Notes under the pieces: generated by a model | Seen by the model: the letters and a program-made list of their open reading frames with translations, nothing else | The model's database searches: none | What the model was told of the DNA's origin: nothing | From: a virus | Taxonomy: Duplodnaviria; Heunggongvirae; Uroviricota; Caudoviricetes | Virus record (IMG/VR): IMGVR_UViG_3300029498_000126 | DNA length: 8,691 bases | Direction: 5' to 3' (one strand) | In this document: piece after piece, positions 3,649 through 8,691 of the stretch | How the letters are laid out: every line of letters begins with the position of its first letter | Numbering within the stretch: the stretch's first letter is position 1 | Program-made: the position numbers and the translations under genes

Positions 3649-3990
3649 ATGATTACTAAAAATTTCCGACTGAATGCGCTGGCGAATAAGTATGCGTCGG
3701 CACTGTATAACCACATTACCTCCACCAGCGGCGGGGACTATTTCATGGTTGATGCGGACGGCCTCGCCGTCCGTGTGGAAATCGTCAATGGAGTAAAAGG
3801 CGTTCGCAGCCTGATCGATAGCTACACACTGGCAGCCATGAAAGTGTTCTACCCGCAGTGGGAAACCGTGGGGATCGAGCTTCTTGATCGTTGCGTCACT
3901 AAGGACGGATTGACTGACGTCGGGCGCGAGATATGGCAAAGCATGATTAATGATATGGGCGCGACCGTGGCAGGAGGCAACCATGCGTAA
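3649..3990 (+). CDS. hypothetical protein (113 aa), translationally coupled to the primase
   Basis: RBS GAGGATGG upstream of ATG 3649. Stop TAA 3988-3990 overlaps the primase start (ATGCGTAA). Confidence 0.5.
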   Translation: MITKNFRLNALANKYASALYNHITSTSGGDYFMVDADGLAVRVEIVNGVKGVRSLIDSYTLAAMKVFYPQWETVGIELLDRCVTKDGLTDVGREIWQSMINDMGATVAGGNHA

Positions 3991-6742
3991 TATCGACCTT
4001 ATCCGCGAAGTGACCAGCGCCGCAGCAGGGCGCTGGCCTTATGTGCTGGCTGGATTGTCTATCGACGTGCCTGATTCATCGCGCCGCCATTCTCCATGCC
4101 CTGCATGTGGTGGAAAAGACCGTTTCAGATTCGACGACAACGGGCGCGGTAGCTTTATCTGCAACCAGTGTGGCGCTGGTGACGGGCTGGATTTAATCAA
4201 GCGGGTTAACAACTGCGACACTACGGAGGCGGCACAGCTTGCCGCTGACGTGCTGGGTATTGATTACCGGGCAGCGCAAACCGACCCGGTGGCAGCGAGC
4301 CATAGAAGAGAGCAACTGGAAGCTGACCGCCAGCAGCGTGAGCAGGAGCGCCAGAAACAGGCAGCAGAGGACGCAGAGCAGCGAAGGGCTACGTTTGCCC
4401 GTCTGTATGCCGGAATGCGCCAGAGTGTCACACAGGGCGAATCTGATTACCTGCAATCAAAAGGGCTGACCGGGTTTAATTACCCGGTTATGTCTGATGG
4501 TTCGCTACTCCTGCCGCTGGTGGATGAATCCGGCGCAGTAGTGGCGGCGCAGACCATCACGCCGCAGGGAGATAAACGACTCCTGACAGGTTCAGCAAAG
4601 CGCGGGGCATATCACGCCGTAAACGCGCCAGAATCGCCGCAGAGCGTTTTAATTGCCGAGGGGCTGGCGACGGCCCTTTCAGTTCACCTGATGCGCCCGG
4701 ACGCGCTGGCAGTGGCAGCAATTGACGCGGGCAACCTGCTACCCGTTGCCGAAGTGATGCGCCGGAAGTATCCACAGGCACAAATAATCATCGCCGCAGA
4801 CAACGACCACCACCAAAACGGAGAAGCCAATACAGGCAGGGAGGCCGCAGAGAAAGCCGCCTTGTCCGTGGCTGGATGGGTGGCACTGCCGCCGACAGAC
4901 TACAAAGCCGACTGGAACGACCACCACCAGCAAAACGGGCTGGAAGTCGCTACGGCTGCGTTTAACGACTCGATGTACCAGATTCAAGGGGAAGCCGTTA
5001 AACCACGATTGCAGGCCATTGAGGGCGGTAAAACTGACCATCCAGAGAAAGACCCACTAAAACCCCACATTGAGAGCCGAAAAGATGTCGTTTTCTGGGT
5101 AACGCCGAAGGTGGACAAGGAAAGCGGGGAGATCATCAACGCTGAAAGCTGGTTATGTTCACCGTTGGAGGTTATCGGCACGGGACGCGACGACAAAGAT
5201 CAGTATCTTATTATCTCATGGCTGGCATTTGGTGCAGGCATACCGACAACAGCGGCTATCCCGCTGGCTGATATTGGCGAGCGTGAAGGCTGGCGCACCC
5301 TGAAAGCTGGTGGCGTCAACGTCACAACGAAAAACAGCCTACGGGCGATTCTTGCCGACTGGTTACAGCGAAGCGGCTCGCGTGAATTGTGGCGCGTTGC
5401 TCATGCTACAGGCTGGCAGTGTGGGGCATACATCATGCCGGACGGGGAAATCATCGGCACACCTCAGCGGCCTGTTTTGTTCAGCGGGCGCAGTTCAGCC
5501 GCTGCCGGGTATACCGTAGCAGGAACGCCTGAAAGCTGGCTTAACAGTGTTGCGCGGCTGGCATACGGCAACTACGCGATGATGACAGGCATCGCCGCAG
5601 CACTGGCAGCGCCATTAATCGGGGTGGCAGATCGTGACGGATTCGGGATTCATTTTTATGAGCAATCGAGCGCCGGGAAAACAACCACGCAGAACGTGGC
5701 GAGCAGTCTTTACGGCAACCCTGATGCCTTGCGCCTGACGTGGTATGGGACGGCGCTGGGGCTGATAAACGAGGCCGCCGCCCACAATGACGGGCTGATG
5801 CCGCTGGATGAAGTCGGACAGGGCGCAGACCCGATAAGCGTTTCTCAGTCTGCCTATGCCCTGTTTAACGGCGTGGGGAAATTGCAGGGAGCAAAGGAAG
5901 GAGGCAACCGGGATCTGAAACGCTGGCGCACCGTGGCAATCAGCACCGGGGAAATGGATTTAGAAACGTTCATCGCCACCGCAGGACGCAAGACAAAAGC
6001 GGGGCAACTGGTGCGACTGCTGAATATCCCGCTGAGTAAGGCGGTGCGCTTTCATGAGCACCAGACAGGGAAAGATCACGCCGACGCGCTGAAAGACGCT
6101 TACCAGCACCATCATGGCGCTGCCGGGCGGGAGTGGATTAGATGGCTTTCAGACCACCAGCAGCAGGCGATTGATGCCGTTCGTGAGTGTGAAGCCCGAT
6201 GGCGAAGTCTAATCCCTGCTGACTATGGGGAACAGGTTCACCGTGTAGGGGCGAGGTTCGCCATTCTGGAGGCCGCTTTACTGCTGGGTGGCGTGGTTAC
6301 TGGCTGGGATGCTCAAACGTGCCGGGATGCGATACAGCACACCTATAACGCATGGCTGAAAGAGTTCGGCACGGGGAACAAAGAGCACCAGCAGATCATC
6401 GAGCAGACGGAGGCGTTTTTAAATGCCTATGGGCTGAGTAGATTCGCGCCGCTGGGTTATGACCCGCGCGATTTACCCATCCGTGATTTAGCCGGGTACA
6501 GGAAGAAGGGGAACCACGACGGCGACCCGATAATTTTCTACACCTTCCCGGCAACATTTGAGCAGGAGATCGCACGGGGTTTTAATGTCAGGCAGTTTGC
6601 CGAAGTTCTCAAGAATGCAGGAATGCTAACACCACCAACGAGCGGGCGAGGTTATCAGGGGCGGGTAAGGGAAGGAGGGCGGCAAATTCGCGTTTATGTG
6701 CTCAACTTCATGGATGAGGAAAGCAGCCAGCCAGAAGAATAA
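3983..6742 (+). CDS. P4-alpha-like DNA primase/helicase (zinc finger + Toprim primase + P-loop helicase/ori-binding C-terminus)
   Basis: 919 aa from ATG 3983 with AGGAGG 7 nt upstream (the track ORF begins 11 codons earlier at 3950). Cys motifs CPACGG...FICNQCG at about 4097-4175. Charged Q/E/R-rich linker. Toprim-like acidic motifs (LIAEGLATALS; IIIAADNDHHQNGEANTGREAAEKAA). Walker A SSAGKTT (~5671-5690) and Walker B LMPLDEVG (~5800-5820). Architecture matches satellite-phage P4 alpha-type primase-helicases. Confidence 0.9.
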   Translation: MRNIDLIREVTSAAAGRWPYVLAGLSIDVPDSSRRHSPCPACGGKDRFRFDDNGRGSFICNQCGAGDGLDLIKRVNNCDTTEAAQLAADVLGIDYRAAQTDPVAASHRREQLEADRQQREQERQKQAAEDAEQRRATFARLYAGMRQSVTQGESDYLQSKGLTGFNYPVMSDGSLLLPLVDESGAVVAAQTITPQGDKRLLTGSAKRGAYHAVNAPESPQSVLIAEGLATALSVHLMRPDALAVAAIDAGNLLPVAEVMRRKYPQAQIIIAADNDHHQNGEANTGREAAEKAALSVAGWVALPPTDYKADWNDHHQQNGLEVATAAFNDSMYQIQGEAVKPRLQAIEGGKTDHPEKDPLKPHIESRKDVVFWVTPKVDKESGEIINAESWLCSPLEVIGTGRDDKDQYLIISWLAFGAGIPTTAAIPLADIGEREGWRTLKAGGVNVTTKNSLRAILADWLQRSGSRELWRVAHATGWQCGAYIMPDGEIIGTPQRPVLFSGRSSAAAGYTVAGTPESWLNSVARLAYGNYAMMTGIAAALAAPLIGVADRDGFGIHFYEQSSAGKTTTQNVASSLYGNPDALRLTWYGTALGLINEAAAHNDGLMPLDEVGQGADPISVSQSAYALFNGVGKLQGAKEGGNRDLKRWRTVAISTGEMDLETFIATAGRKTKAGQLVRLLNIPLSKAVRFHEHQTGKDHADALKDAYQHHHGAAGREWIRWLSDHQQQAIDAVRECEARWRSLIPADYGEQVHRVGARFAILEAALLLGGVVTGWDAQTCRDAIQHTYNAWLKEFGTGNKEHQQIIEQTEAFLNAYGLSRFAPLGYDPRDLPIRDLAGYRKKGNHDGDPIIFYTFPATFEQEIARGFNVRQFAEVLKNAGMLTPPTSGRGYQGRVREGGRQIRVYVLNFMDEESSQPEE

Positions 6743-6766
6743 TCTTTTTTCACATACGTAGTTTTA

Positions 6767-7027
6767 GTGTTGTCTCAGTTGTCTTTGTTGTCTCATTTTG
6801 TAAGTTACATTGATTTATAAGGATTTTATTTTAATTTCTGAGACAACATTGAGACAACATTTAGCCATTTTGAGACAACAGGGCGAACGTGTGTTTTTAG
6901 TCCGGCAGGCAGTGAGACAACATTTATGCCGGGTGAGACAACACGAAATTGCAAATGTTGTCTCAGCAAAACCCAGACGTGGCGCGGCCTGTAGAGCCGT
7001 GAGACAACAAAGACAACAGAGACAACA
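6767..7027. repeat. iteron array (TGAGACAACA / TGTTGTCTCA), probable origin of replication
   Basis: Core GAGACAAC on + at 6840-6847, 6851-6858, 6872-6879, 6914-6921, 6935-6942, 7001-7008, 7019-7026 (plus AGACAAC 7011-7017). Reverse complement GTTGTCTC at 6769-6776, 6787-6794, 6957-6964 (plus GTTGTCTT 6778-6785). Spacings of 11, 21, 42, 21 and 9 bp suggest helical phasing. Lies just 3' of the primase/helicase gene. Confidence 0.75.
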
Positions 7028-7057
7028 CTATTTTTGTTTATATACAAAAAAATCTGG
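7028..7057. other. AT-rich tract adjacent to the iterons, candidate DNA unwinding element
   Basis: ctatttttgtttatatacaaaaaaatctgg is strongly AT-rich and abuts the last iteron. Confidence 0.4.
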
Positions 7058-7130: not shown

Positions 7131-7592
7131 ATGACAGCACAGATATCAGCCTACGGGCGGCTGGTGGCAGATCCCCAGACCAGAACGACAAACAGCGGCG
7201 GCAGCATGACAATGGGGCGTTTAGCGGTGGCACTGCCTTGCCATGCAGCAGAGGGCGGAGAGGTTACTTTCTGGCTGGGCGTGGTGGCATTCGGCAAACA
7301 GGCCGACGCACTGGCAGGACACGTTAAAGGCGATTTAGTCAGTGTTGCCGGAGCGATGCAGGTCAATCAGTGGGCGGGCAAGGATGGCGGTACACAGCAG
7401 GGGTATCAGGTAGTAGCCGACAGCGTGATCAGCGCCAGAACGGTACGCCCCGGCGGGAAGCGGGCCGAGTCAGTCAAAGCAAGTGGAGCCAGCAGGGGCC
7501 ACAAAACGCAATCCGCGCCGGGATGGGAGCTATATAACACCCCTGATGATTTTGACCAGCGCCCACCATTCGACGATGAAACGCCATTCTGA
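7131..7592 (+). CDS. ssb: single-stranded DNA-binding protein (SSB family, OB fold) with acidic C-terminal tail
   Basis: 153 aa. N-terminal region follows the SSB pattern seen in E. coli SSB (G.L..DP..R...GG...; W..VV.FGK.A....KG..V...G......W). C-terminus ...DDFDQRPPFDDETPF closely resembles the E. coli SSB tail ...DFDDDIPF. GAGG about 11 nt upstream of the ATG. Confidence 0.8.
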   Translation: MTAQISAYGRLVADPQTRTTNSGGSMTMGRLAVALPCHAAEGGEVTFWLGVVAFGKQADALAGHVKGDLVSVAGAMQVNQWAGKDGGTQQGYQVVADSVISARTVRPGGKRAESVKASGASRGHKTQSAPGWELYNTPDDFDQRPPFDDETPF

Positions 7593-7603
7593 GGGGGGTG
7601 AAC

Positions 7604-7915
7604 ATGGTAAACGACAGCAAAGCTGAGGATCTGGAAGCAAAAGGGCTGTACCGACGCGCCGCCGCGCGATGGATGGAAGTCATGCTGTTATGCACCGAGG
7701 ACGATGATCGGGAATGGATAAAGCGCCGCCGTGAAACGTGTCTGGAGAACGTGAAGCGCCCGCCCGTGAAGGTTGAGGACTTTGGCGACCTGCATAAAGC
7801 TGTCACCGAAACTCAGCACCGCATGGGGATAGCGCAACCGAACGGTAACGCCTTCCGGTTAAATGGCGGCAAGAGGCAACGGCAGACCACCAGCGGGGGC
7901 GATGGTTCGCAGTAA
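7604..7915 (+). CDS. small regulator, PerC-like (103 aa)
   Basis: ATG 7604 with GAGGGGGG RBS directly upstream (the track ORF starts at a GTG at 7598). N-terminus MVNDSKAEDLEAKGLYRRAAARWMEVM...REWIKRRRETCL resembles what I recall of PerC-family activators, which are common in enterobacterial prophages and satellites. From memory, not a search. Confidence 0.45.
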   Translation: MVNDSKAEDLEAKGLYRRAAARWMEVMLLCTEDDDREWIKRRRETCLENVKRPPVKVEDFGDLHKAVTETQHRMGIAQPNGNAFRLNGGKRQRQTTSGGDGSQ

Positions 7916-7930
7916 GTTTCGCACCCAAAC

Positions 7931-8299
7931 GGCGGAAAATTTAGTACTGTTTAGTACGGATTTAAAACCCTAGCCGCGCCAGTAGCGGGCTGGAAGCCAA
8001 ATCCTGATTCAGGACGTCCTAAATATCTGGTTCGTTCCACTGGTACGCAGTCAGGTGCGCAGCAAAACTGCGCATTCAACGTGCGTACTACCTGACGAAT
8101 GCTAACGGTGGTATTGCGTACAGAAATTGCGAATTCGCAGTAATTTCTAAGCGCGAATTGCTCATTCGAAAAATAGCGGAGATGCCTGTTATTGCTGGCT
8201 TGGGCGCTATCCGTTCGCAGTAGATGGCGGAAGTTAGATATACAGTTTTATTAAGGTATTGTTAGGGTTTGTTAAGGTTTTTGCGCACAAAAATGCGCA
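7931..8299. promoter_or_regulatory. dyad-symmetry-rich intergenic region: candidate operator/promoter and/or packaging (cos/pac-like) site
   Basis: Direct repeats TTTAGTAC x2 (7931-7938, 7941-7948). Interleaved inverted repeats GTACGCA (8043-8049)/TGCGTAC (8082-8088) and GTCAGGT (8050-8056)/ACCTGAC (8090-8096) around TGCGCA-N7-TGCGCA (8056-8074). Near-perfect palindrome GAAATTGCGAATTCGCAGTAATTTC (8123-8147). Tandem ~10-bp T-phased repeats (8251-8280). Second TGCGCA-N6-TGCGCA site (8282-8299) 15 bp upstream of the ATG at 8314. Confidence 0.45.
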
Positions 8300-8313
8300 C
8301 AGTGAGCCGTTAA

Positions 8314-8691
8314 ATGAAAAAAAATAGCCAACAATCAAGATCGGGATGGGGTGGCAAGCGGAAAGGCGCAGGCGCACCATTGGGCAATACTAATGCCGTC
8401 AAACATGGCGAACGCAGTCGGCGGGCATTCTTCCCATTTGAGGGGGGAGAGGCGCTTTCTCCGCTGGTGCGAAATCGTGCAAGAAACCTCATGCTGGCTG
8501 AGAGATACGGGCTATTACTGGCGAATAATCCGACGCCGGGAACAGAAGAATGGCGCGAGATGACATTGATTAACGGACTCATGGGGCTACATGCCGACAG
8601 AATCGCACGGCTTGAGCTGAGATTAGCGAGAGCCGTTTCAATGCAAGCAAGGCGGGATCTGCGAAGGGTTAAAAAAAGCGGCGCATGTTAG
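8314..8691 (+). CDS. hypothetical basic protein (125 aa); possible small-terminase-like or packaging-associated DNA-binding protein
   Basis: Complete ORF ending with TAG at the window edge. Basic glycine-rich N-terminus GWGGKRKGAGAPLGNTNAVKHG is reminiscent of DNA-binding N-termini seen in some phage small terminase subunits. Helical Arg-rich C-terminal half. Functional call rests on that motif and the position after the dyad-rich region, so it is tentative. Confidence 0.4.
   Translation: MKKNSQQSRSGWGGKRKGAGAPLGNTNAVKHGERSRRAFFPFEGGEALSPLVRNRARNLMLAERYGLLLANNPTPGTEEWREMTLINGLMGLHADRIARLELRLARAVSMQARRDLRRVKKSGAC

Follow-up and report, generated by a model that had tools for sequence, protein, structure and literature searches.

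The DNA analysed here is an 8,691-nt stretch, IMG/VR virus record IMGVR_UViG_3300029498_000126 (referred to in its whole length as the window), which by its gene content and order is a Gram-negative phage-inducible chromosomal island (PICI). Between a PerC-family gene and a gene coding for a 125-amino-acid (125-aa) protein, at the very end of the window, it carries a gap of 398 bp (7916–8313) filled with short repeats that are also found inside, or directly next to, the small terminase genes (terS) of helper-type phages. We propose that this gap is the cis-acting packaging region of the island, a mosaic mimic of pac signals that would assemble the repeats of two helper TerS families. All functional statements made here rest on comparative inference, and we give this reading a probability of roughly 45%.

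The gap extends from the stop codon of the PerC gene (7915) to the ATG at 8314. A first-pass annotation of the sequence had described about 400 bp of non-coding DNA at this place and this is confirmed, since no frame was conserved in six-frame translation and PHROG gave no match for an open stretch of 61 aa; a hidden coding region was discarded on these grounds. Relatives of the gap differ from it by indels of 5, 11 and 29 bp. The hexamer TGCGCA appears only four times in the 8.7-kb window (at 8056, 8069, 8282 and 8294), making up the two sites already pointed out by the first-pass annotation, TGCGCA-N7-TGCGCA and TGCGCA-N6-TGCGCA. They belong to a wider family, TGCG[ACT]A / T[AGT]CGCA, with 12 copies within 7906–8299, 11 of them inside the gap; the first one (TTCGCA, 7906) is already held in the final codons of the PerC gene. 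In 2000 dinucleotide-preserving shuffles of the gap the expected number was 1.0 ± 0.95 (maximum 5), none reaching the 11 observed, and any other stretch of 398 nt in the window has at most three. The start-to-start spacing is repeatedly 12–13 bp. This is also the prevailing distance, with A-rich spacers, in the main array of the gap (array I: TACGCA at 8044, TGCGCA at 8056 and 8069, TGCGTA at 8082 and 8115, TGCGAA at 8128 and TTCGCA at 8134).

Several other symmetries had been described in this region. The inverted repeats interleaved around the first TGCGCA site are indeed present (GTACGCA at 8043 with TGCGTAC at 8082, and GTCAGG at 8050 with CCTGAC at 8091), and so are the phased T-tract repeats, in the form of three TTRTTARGGT units. 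The 25-bp palindrome centred on GAATTC (8123–8147) could be retained only in part: in register it is self-complementary at 14 of 25 positions, with the outer arms offset by 3 nt, and its perfect portion is a 10-bp core, GCGAATTCGC (8129–8138). Given that this core amounts to two abutting hexamers, TGCGAA and TTCGCA, the seemingly separate symmetry elements are largely one repeated, near-palindromic hexamer family.

Alignment of the gap with those of islands from E. coli, Atlantibacter and Klebsiella, and of metagenomic relatives, divided it into two separable modules. Module 1 (approximately 7937–8042) begins with tandem decamers and has at its centre a palindrome, ATTCAGGAC followed by GTCCTAAAT (8007–8024), that is itself an inverted pair of decamer-like units. 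Its 11 distinct copies keep a mean column identity of 79% amid unrelated flanks; there are about two copies per island and, in E. coli, they are confined to these islands. The second, diverged copy begins immediately behind the 125-aa gene's stop codon (L002 14805–15145, just beyond the window end; L120 5832–6443), and was missed in the first-pass annotation because the window ends at that codon. In L120 and L123 it is followed by a run of CGCAG-type hexamers with a strong AGGAGG and then by a 203-aa zinc-ribbon open reading frame (ORF) that had no Pfam or PADLOC match. The window lineage has this ORF reduced to a 28-codon remnant, after which comes a hairpin terminator, and at the deletion joint of L003, module 1 and the 3′ end of the 203-aa ORF share microhomology.

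Hexamer arrays, T-tract units and the last TGCGCA pair all belong to module 2 (8043–8313), which is found without module 1 in L021 and L020. In Pectobacterium and Brenneria islands this module is located directly after the replication origin, 2.3 kb upstream of the 125-aa gene. Klebsiella and Pectobacterium islands retain the last two T-tract units as TGYTAAGGTTTT. The final TGCGCA pair is conserved in L018, L021 and L023, with a single hexamer left in the natural deletion variant L120. Overall, arrays were found in islands of E. coli, Klebsiella, Atlantibacter, Pectobacterium, Brenneria and Serratia, as well as in the distant L114, and L122 has 20 hexamers in about 700 bp. For the Pectobacterium and Brenneria loci (L008, L009, L014 and related ones, ~9420–9945) we also observed that a toxin-antitoxin pair of the RelE/ParE type and a 313-aa gene on the reverse strand are inserted between the TGCGCA cluster and the 125-aa gene, which suggests that this position is a cargo hotspot.

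The same hexamers form arrays within phage terS genes. In five of six diverse terS genes of the PHROG 51/370 type, five to eight of them are located at nt 100–300 of the gene, right after the part coding for the helix-turn-helix (HTH), while the remainder of these genes has 0–1.5 per 200 nt. The phages concerned are Klebsiella ST974-OXA48phi18.2, Yersinia vB_YenM_29.18, Escherichia GER2, Providencia PSTCR3 and Escherichia vB_EcoS-611R4. The codon phase of the hexamers varies within a single gene (e.g. positions 138, 147, 159, 173, 180 and 196 in ST974), they encode different peptides in different phages (TAQ, SAN), and the sixth terS, from an O157 prophage, has at the same place another 12-bp-phased repeat, CGATCAT, four times and with an embedded GATC. 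Taken together, this points to selection acting on the DNA repeat rather than on the peptide, and the arrays (phage and prophage terS loci L127 1638–1701, L128 1632–1676, L129 1631–1773, L210, L211 and L212) look like unmapped pac signals. The pac site of phage P1 contains repeated hexamers. That of P22 lies inside its terS (gene 3) (PMC11260489).

The resemblance between island and phage arrays goes beyond single hexamers. The segment GCAAAACTGCGCA (8061–8073) is also present in the terS array of vB_EcoS-611R4, TGCGAATTCGCAG (8128–8140, within the GAATTC palindrome) in that of Yersinia phage vB_YenM_29.18, and the second TGCGCA site (8282–8299) matches TGCGCAGAAAAATGCGCA in the GER2 array at 17 of 18 positions. 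The variant TGCGAA is common to the Serratia island L013 and the Yersinia and Providencia phages; TGCGCA is found in E. coli and Klebsiella islands, mixed with other variants, and also in phages of E. coli and Klebsiella. Potential helpers would be common, since 890 of 5426 complete E. coli genomes (~16%) carry the 5′ region of the 611R4-type terS. Two sister islands even preserve pieces of terS beside their arrays. In L013, a truncated terS of 52 aa (residues 1–49 of PHROG 370/51, E 1e-16, i.e. the N-terminal HTH part) lies upstream of the 125-aa gene and is followed by a TGCGAA/TTCGCA array, and in L114 a C-terminal terS remnant (E 3e-6) is found just before ACTGCGCA clusters. More arrays lie upstream of the 125-aa homologues of Serratia islands and of islands of the Klebsiella type (L013 9440–9700 and L024 2600–2830), with GGTACGCA and TGCGTACC repeats, and these also hold four to five copies of (A)GTTTCCA(C).

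Module 1, for its part, leads to another terminase family. In many relatives the 125-aa gene is immediately followed by a gene of the DUF2280 family, annotated as of unknown function (PF10045, PHROG 546; island and phage loci L021 3436–3909, L018 3439–3849, L027–L030 and L124–L126). The island proteins are 60–73% identical to phage proteins encoded directly before TerL, an arrangement common to many temperate phages, among them Oslo, ZF40, RAH1 and ST899-OXA48phi17.1, and to E. coli prophages. This is the position of the small terminase, and synteny thus suggests that DUF2280 is a TerS family. Sister PICIs encode a copy of their own, with a truncated C-terminus in L018 and as pseudogenes in L024–L026. 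The C-terminal tails are modular and come in discrete types, as would be expected if they bind TerL, and the island protein of L021 has a tail of the same type as a protein from an E. coli prophage. In the gap of about 30 nt between a metallopeptidase gene and the DUF2280-type terS of phages ZF40, RAH1 and ST899, of E. coli prophages and of IMG/VR contigs, we find the tandem decamers of module 1 again, and they also precede the island DUF2280 genes. One strain, CFS3246, has both the island and a DUF2280-type prophage, with AAATACTGGACTGTA common to the two. An exact-pattern scan of IMG/VR for the decamer pair of the window itself gave no matches. The decamer variants resemble drift around the consensus TyCTGGACnG, so we do not claim that they are helper-specific codes co-varying with TerS. 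We also compared the 211-aa metalloprotease-like gene of the island with the phage metallopeptidase gene preceding terS, and they are not homologous.

The following scenario would account for these data. After induction the island would replicate from its own iteron origin (6742–7053) into concatemers. The phased TGCGCA-like hexamers in module 2, which would be a copy of the array inside the phage's own terS, would serve as the target for a TerS of the PHROG 51/370 type, and the tandem decamers in module 1, which would copy the sequence just upstream of the phage terS, as the target for one of the DUF2280 type. The bound TerS would then recruit TerL, which would cut nearby, within or close to the gap, and start headful packaging of island DNA into helper capsids.

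Several observations weigh against this proposal. A BLASTN search of 50,697 phage records with the whole gap and with module 1 as queries returned nothing significant, so that the likeness is at the level of motifs only, and we found no paper showing terS-internal hexamer arrays or pre-terS decamers as pac in phages of the PHROG 51/370 or DUF2280 types. The co-occurrence of island and helper type was seen in one strain only. In the island array, hexamers of different variants and orientations are intermingled, and outside the 12–13-bp runs they are irregularly spaced; hexamer columns are conserved at 0.88 versus 0.80 for the other columns, a modest gain. In the natural variant L120, a loss of some 185 bp has removed the palindrome and the T-tract units, among other parts of module 2, and the 125-aa gene is intact. 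Lastly, both copies of the cassette end at a ribosome-binding site (RBS), that of the 125-aa gene and that of the 203-aa ORF with its AGGAGG, which would fit regulation equally well.

A regulatory function is, in fact, the best of the alternatives, even if we consider it rather unlikely. Under this view, each accessory gene would be preceded by a promoter or operator that depends on an activator (late or helper-induced) and is made up of module 1 and the hexamer array, with PerC or a late activator of the helper binding the repeats and switching on the 125-aa gene, the 203-aa ORF and the Pectobacterium cargo genes after induction. Each island has two copies of the cassette, each reaching from the stop of one gene to the RBS of the next, a PerC-family activator gene is immediately upstream in many islands, and the TGCGCA pair lies 15–32 nt before the ATG. 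In Pectobacterium, the TGCGCA cluster and ATGCTAAGGTTTTTTGCGCAG stand before the inserted cargo and not before the 125-aa gene. No sigma-70-like promoter was found in 7850–8400 nor in the equivalent regions of relatives, as would be expected of activator dependence, and this leaves unsupported the earlier claim that the second TGCGCA site overlaps the likely promoter of the 125-aa gene. On the other hand, regulation leaves unexplained why phage terS genes contain hexamer arrays in several codon phases and why terS remnants sit beside the arrays of sister islands. L118, L119, L122 and L123 have the cassette without PerC and, since no terminator was found between PerC and the 125-aa gene, read-through transcription may suffice for the latter. 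Regulatory and packaging roles may also coexist.

It is less probable still that the gap is a functionless relic, i.e. a decaying helper terS with its upstream sequence, captured by recombination and kept either for too short a time to be lost or as recombination joints. The terS pseudogene fragments of L013 and L114 would be natural under such an origin, as would the mosaic gene order around the cassette and the frequent turnover by indels (reduction of the 203-aa ORF to 28 aa, the deletion with microhomology in L003 and the loss of part of module 2 in L120). Yet the hexamers persist where coding capacity has been lost completely, at 11 per 398 bp here and at the even larger number of L122. 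Their spread over several genera and the distant L114, and the identity retained by module 1 between unrelated neighbours, are likewise hard to reconcile with simple decay.

The first-pass annotation had offered two readings of the region, a packaging-redirection module or an autoregulated repressor-operator pair, and in both of them the 125-aa protein was the active partner. Residues 7–44 of this protein are a near-invariant, basic and Gly-rich segment (QSxxGWGGxRxGAGAPxGNxNAVKHGERSxxAFFxxxG), its most conserved part. The AlphaFold2 (AF2) model predicts a disordered N-terminus (pLDDT <50) and, confidently, a two-helix hairpin for residues 50–124 (H50–70 and H78–124). Its homologues form 108 clusters at 90% identity, all of them unnamed proteins of Enterobacterales, and every examined locus with enough flank to judge was PICI-like. 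There was no match in Pfam or PADLOC, none among phages by tblastn, and none in the PDB by sequence and profile searches over all entries, which should include Rpp (6HLK, 6HN7). Neither the Pfam scan nor the confident AF2 model gave any sign of an HTH or winged HTH, and fold searches retrieved only generic helical hairpins and no TerS fold. The sole likeness to small terminases is a motif of about 25 residues: the segment GAGAPxGNxNAVKHG resembles one found behind the N-terminal HTH of the TerS families NF040601, PHROG 1889 and PHROG 509, over 20–25 residues and with 17–19 bits (18.9 for NF040601 versus a cut-off of 120; E 0.007 over 20 residues for PHROG 1889). With DUF2280 there was no similarity (hhalign probability 0.1). 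A profile search of 1.8 billion proteins found, outside the family, only the N-terminal motif, in 213 mostly small, uncharacterised proteins. About 200 small proteins (P0123–P0247) from very diverse metagenomes, most of them assigned to no family, have one to three copies each of GG(K/R)RxGAGAPxGNxNAxKHG(x)xS.

Accordingly, we do not regard the 125-aa protein as an Rpp (no winged HTH, no PDB sequence match), as a TerS (far below the family cut-off, no TerS fold) or as an HTH repressor. Of the packaging-redirection module, the DNA half gains support, in that the repeats match those associated with helper terS, and the protein half does not. An autoregulated pair, in which the basic N-terminus of the protein would bind TGCGCA and its own gene would thereby be repressed or activated, is a doubtful explanation at best. 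It would make sense of the strong conservation of that N-terminus, of a site abutting the start codon and of TGCGCA-type clusters upstream of homologues as distant as P0129 (L114). However, L119 and L122 keep module 1 and dense hexamer arrays without having the gene, and two Rosenbergiella loci examined have the gene, with its invariant N-terminus, and no array nearby, so the repeats are unlikely to be its private operator. To this must be added that the Pectobacterium array is 2.3 kb from the gene, that the cassette is found before another gene as well, the 203-aa ORF, and that the model contains no HTH, ribbon-helix-helix or other DNA-binding fold. Under our preferred reading of the gap as a packaging signal, the protein is probably not the one that recognizes this DNA. 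It is a conserved accessory protein of satellites, and our tentative view is that it would most likely modulate the helper terminase, either by interference or as an adaptor. A bolder version is that it represents a new family of HTH-less, TerS-derived terminase modulators, the counterpart of Rpp for pac phages. Its basic arm and hairpin would engage the helper TerS/TerL or the TGCGCA array, diverting headful packaging from the intragenic pac array of the phage to the non-coding copy of the island, and one island would exploit two unrelated TerS families through its mosaic signal. We find this unlikely as a whole.

Very improbable, finally, is that the gap is a second replication origin or encodes a structured RNA: its short motifs with helical phasing do resemble iterons and it is probably transcribed by read-through from PerC, but a canonical iteron origin with an AT-rich core is already present after the primase-replicase gene (pri-rep), as is an iteron type of its own at this position in every sister island, the gap, with a GC of 0.41–0.51, has no AT-rich unwinding element, there was no Rfam match in it at E ≤ 1, and compensatory changes were seen in none of 25 predicted pairs (11 copies; covariation term +0.43). 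The origin-like field itself (6742–7053) starts directly after the pri-rep stop codon with at least 13 TGAGACAACA / TGTTGTCTCA iterons, in two inverted groups with imperfect arms of 54 nt around an AT-rich core (GC 0.28). At the equivalent place the iterons of sister islands differ, being GAACCGAC in Pectobacterium, GAGGTAACC in L114 and of the GGTTCA type in Serratia L013.

The remaining genes support the assignment to PICIs. The order in the window is AlpA, AntA, Icd, pri-rep, iteron origin, SSB, PerC, the 398-bp gap and the 125-aa gene, and the listed ORFs from the AntA-type gene to the 125-aa gene are on one strand (ORF listing and Pfam scans). PerC-family regulator is also how the upstream neighbour is annotated in E. 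coli relatives. Over its last 792 bases the window matches 42 complete E. coli chromosomes at 96–99.6% identity, and in these 42 genomes one and the same 12-kb element lies between int and the flanking chromosome, at two different attachment (att) sites. Annotated relatives show an element of about 12 kb that starts with an integrase and an AlpA-like HTH gene, at tRNA-Thr in one strain and at yicC/dinD in another. An integrase at one end, an alpA-type regulator, pri-rep followed by the origin, a size within 10–20 kb and specific insertion sites are all found here, and this gene order matches the standard Gram-negative PICI layout (PMC6092414). The coordinates of the individual features are collected in the table. 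In the region 1395–2378 of the window (L001 7177–7904), between a DUF4222 gene and small ORFs, the closest annotated relative has a partial "ash family" pseudogene and a short Icd-like gene, and strain D5 has one intact Icd-like gene of 241 aa in the same region; the copy in the window therefore probably carries a disrupted Icd/Ash region.

Features of the 398-bp gap and of the genes around it (positions in the window)
Feature	Position	Strand	Basis or remark
pri-rep: TOPRIM + zinc-ribbon + DUF927 primase-replicase	3950–6742		Pfam
SSB gene	7131–7592		Pfam
PerC-family gene, upstream neighbour of the gap	7598–7915	+	Pfam PF06069, E 2e-29
Two TTCGCA hexamers, 12 bp apart, across the PerC stop codon	7906–7923	+	Repeat families D1/D2
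Tandem decamers TTTAGTACTG / TTTAGTACGG, start of module 1; consensus in relatives TyCTGGACnG twice	7940–7959	+	Repeat family D7
Body of module 1, imperfect dyad of ~75 bp; outer arms GCGCCAGTAGCGGGCTGGAA and CTGGTTCGTTCCACTGGTACGC	7976–8049	.	Repeat I4
Hexamer array I, core of module 2; includes the first TGCGCA site and the GAATTC core palindrome	8043–8139	.
Solitary TTCGCA, context GTTCGCAGTAG, kept in relatives	8214–8219	+
Three phased TTRTTARGGT units (8248, 8259, 8269), period of 10–11 bp	8248–8278	+	Repeat family D3
TGCGCAC-AAAAA-TGCGCA pair, second TGCGCA site; its end is 15 nt before the ATG	8282–8299	.
Gene for the 125-aa satellite-restricted protein	8314–8691 (incl. stop)	+	ORF ends exactly at the window end

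That satellites carry packaging sites of their helpers is already known, and the advance here would be a new variant together with a testable map. What is new is a candidate pac-type signal in Gram-negative PICIs, apparently derived from terS-internal and pre-terS repeats, the pac arrays that it implies for phages of the PHROG 51/370 and DUF2280 types, and an uncharacterised family of satellite proteins, flagged as candidate terminase modulators, encoded beside the gap. If correct, it would provide a sequence-level packaging signal for those Gram-negative PICIs that do not use lambda-type cos plus Rpp, and would point to where two terminase families common in enterobacteria have their pac signals, one of these families being present in about 16% of complete E. 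coli genomes. The helper range of an island, and its potential for island-driven or lateral transduction, would become predictable from sequence, and the hexamer or decamer variant of an island could be compared with that of the resident prophage.

PICIs with cos or pac sites of their helpers are well established, including the two cos sites of EcCICFT073 (PMC6092414, PMC6739421). EcCICFT073-type islands, which work with Rpp and cos1/cos2, are of the same class as the one described here (integrase, alpA, pri-rep, origin and a 3′ accessory region) (PMC6092414, PMC6739421, PMC9026076). They too have a non-coding signal that neighbours a small satellite protein, is present twice in each island and is partly helper-like and partly island-specific. 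The two systems are thus close in logic and differ in every component: in place of a lambda-like cosQ/cosN we find repeats copying the terS arrays of pac-type (headful) phages, and the 125-aa protein is devoid of the winged HTH that defines Rpp. A lambda-type cos was rejected, as the cosN 12-mer is absent from the gap at up to 3 mismatches and its matches elsewhere are at chance level; no cos is adjacent to the 125-aa gene in the way known for Rpp. As for the protein, its arrangement of a motif followed by helices resembles the TerS of NF040601, PHROG 1889 and PHROG 509 minus the HTH, from which it differs in that the match covers only some 25 residues, with neither HTH nor TerS fold.

The strategy is the same as that of the Staphylococcus aureus pathogenicity islands (SaPIs) and other PICIs, in which the satellite carries either the recognition sequence of the helper or a TerS homologue with its site (PMC6092414), and sister islands of the window do encode a DUF2280 protein of their own. 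The differences are the Gram-negative host, the TerS families involved (DUF2280 and PHROG 51/370), the lack of visible capsid-size redirection genes in the window island and the fact that this island lost, or never had, DUF2280, and appears to combine the signals of two unrelated TerS families. With regard to the intragenic pac of P22 (PMC11260489), the difference is that the pac status of the PHROG 51/370- and DUF2280-type arrays is one that we infer. The likeness lies in the architecture, because the phage arrays that the island seems to have copied are likewise placed inside terS, with approximately helical phasing and in lineage-specific versions (TGCGCA, TGCGAA or CGATCAT).

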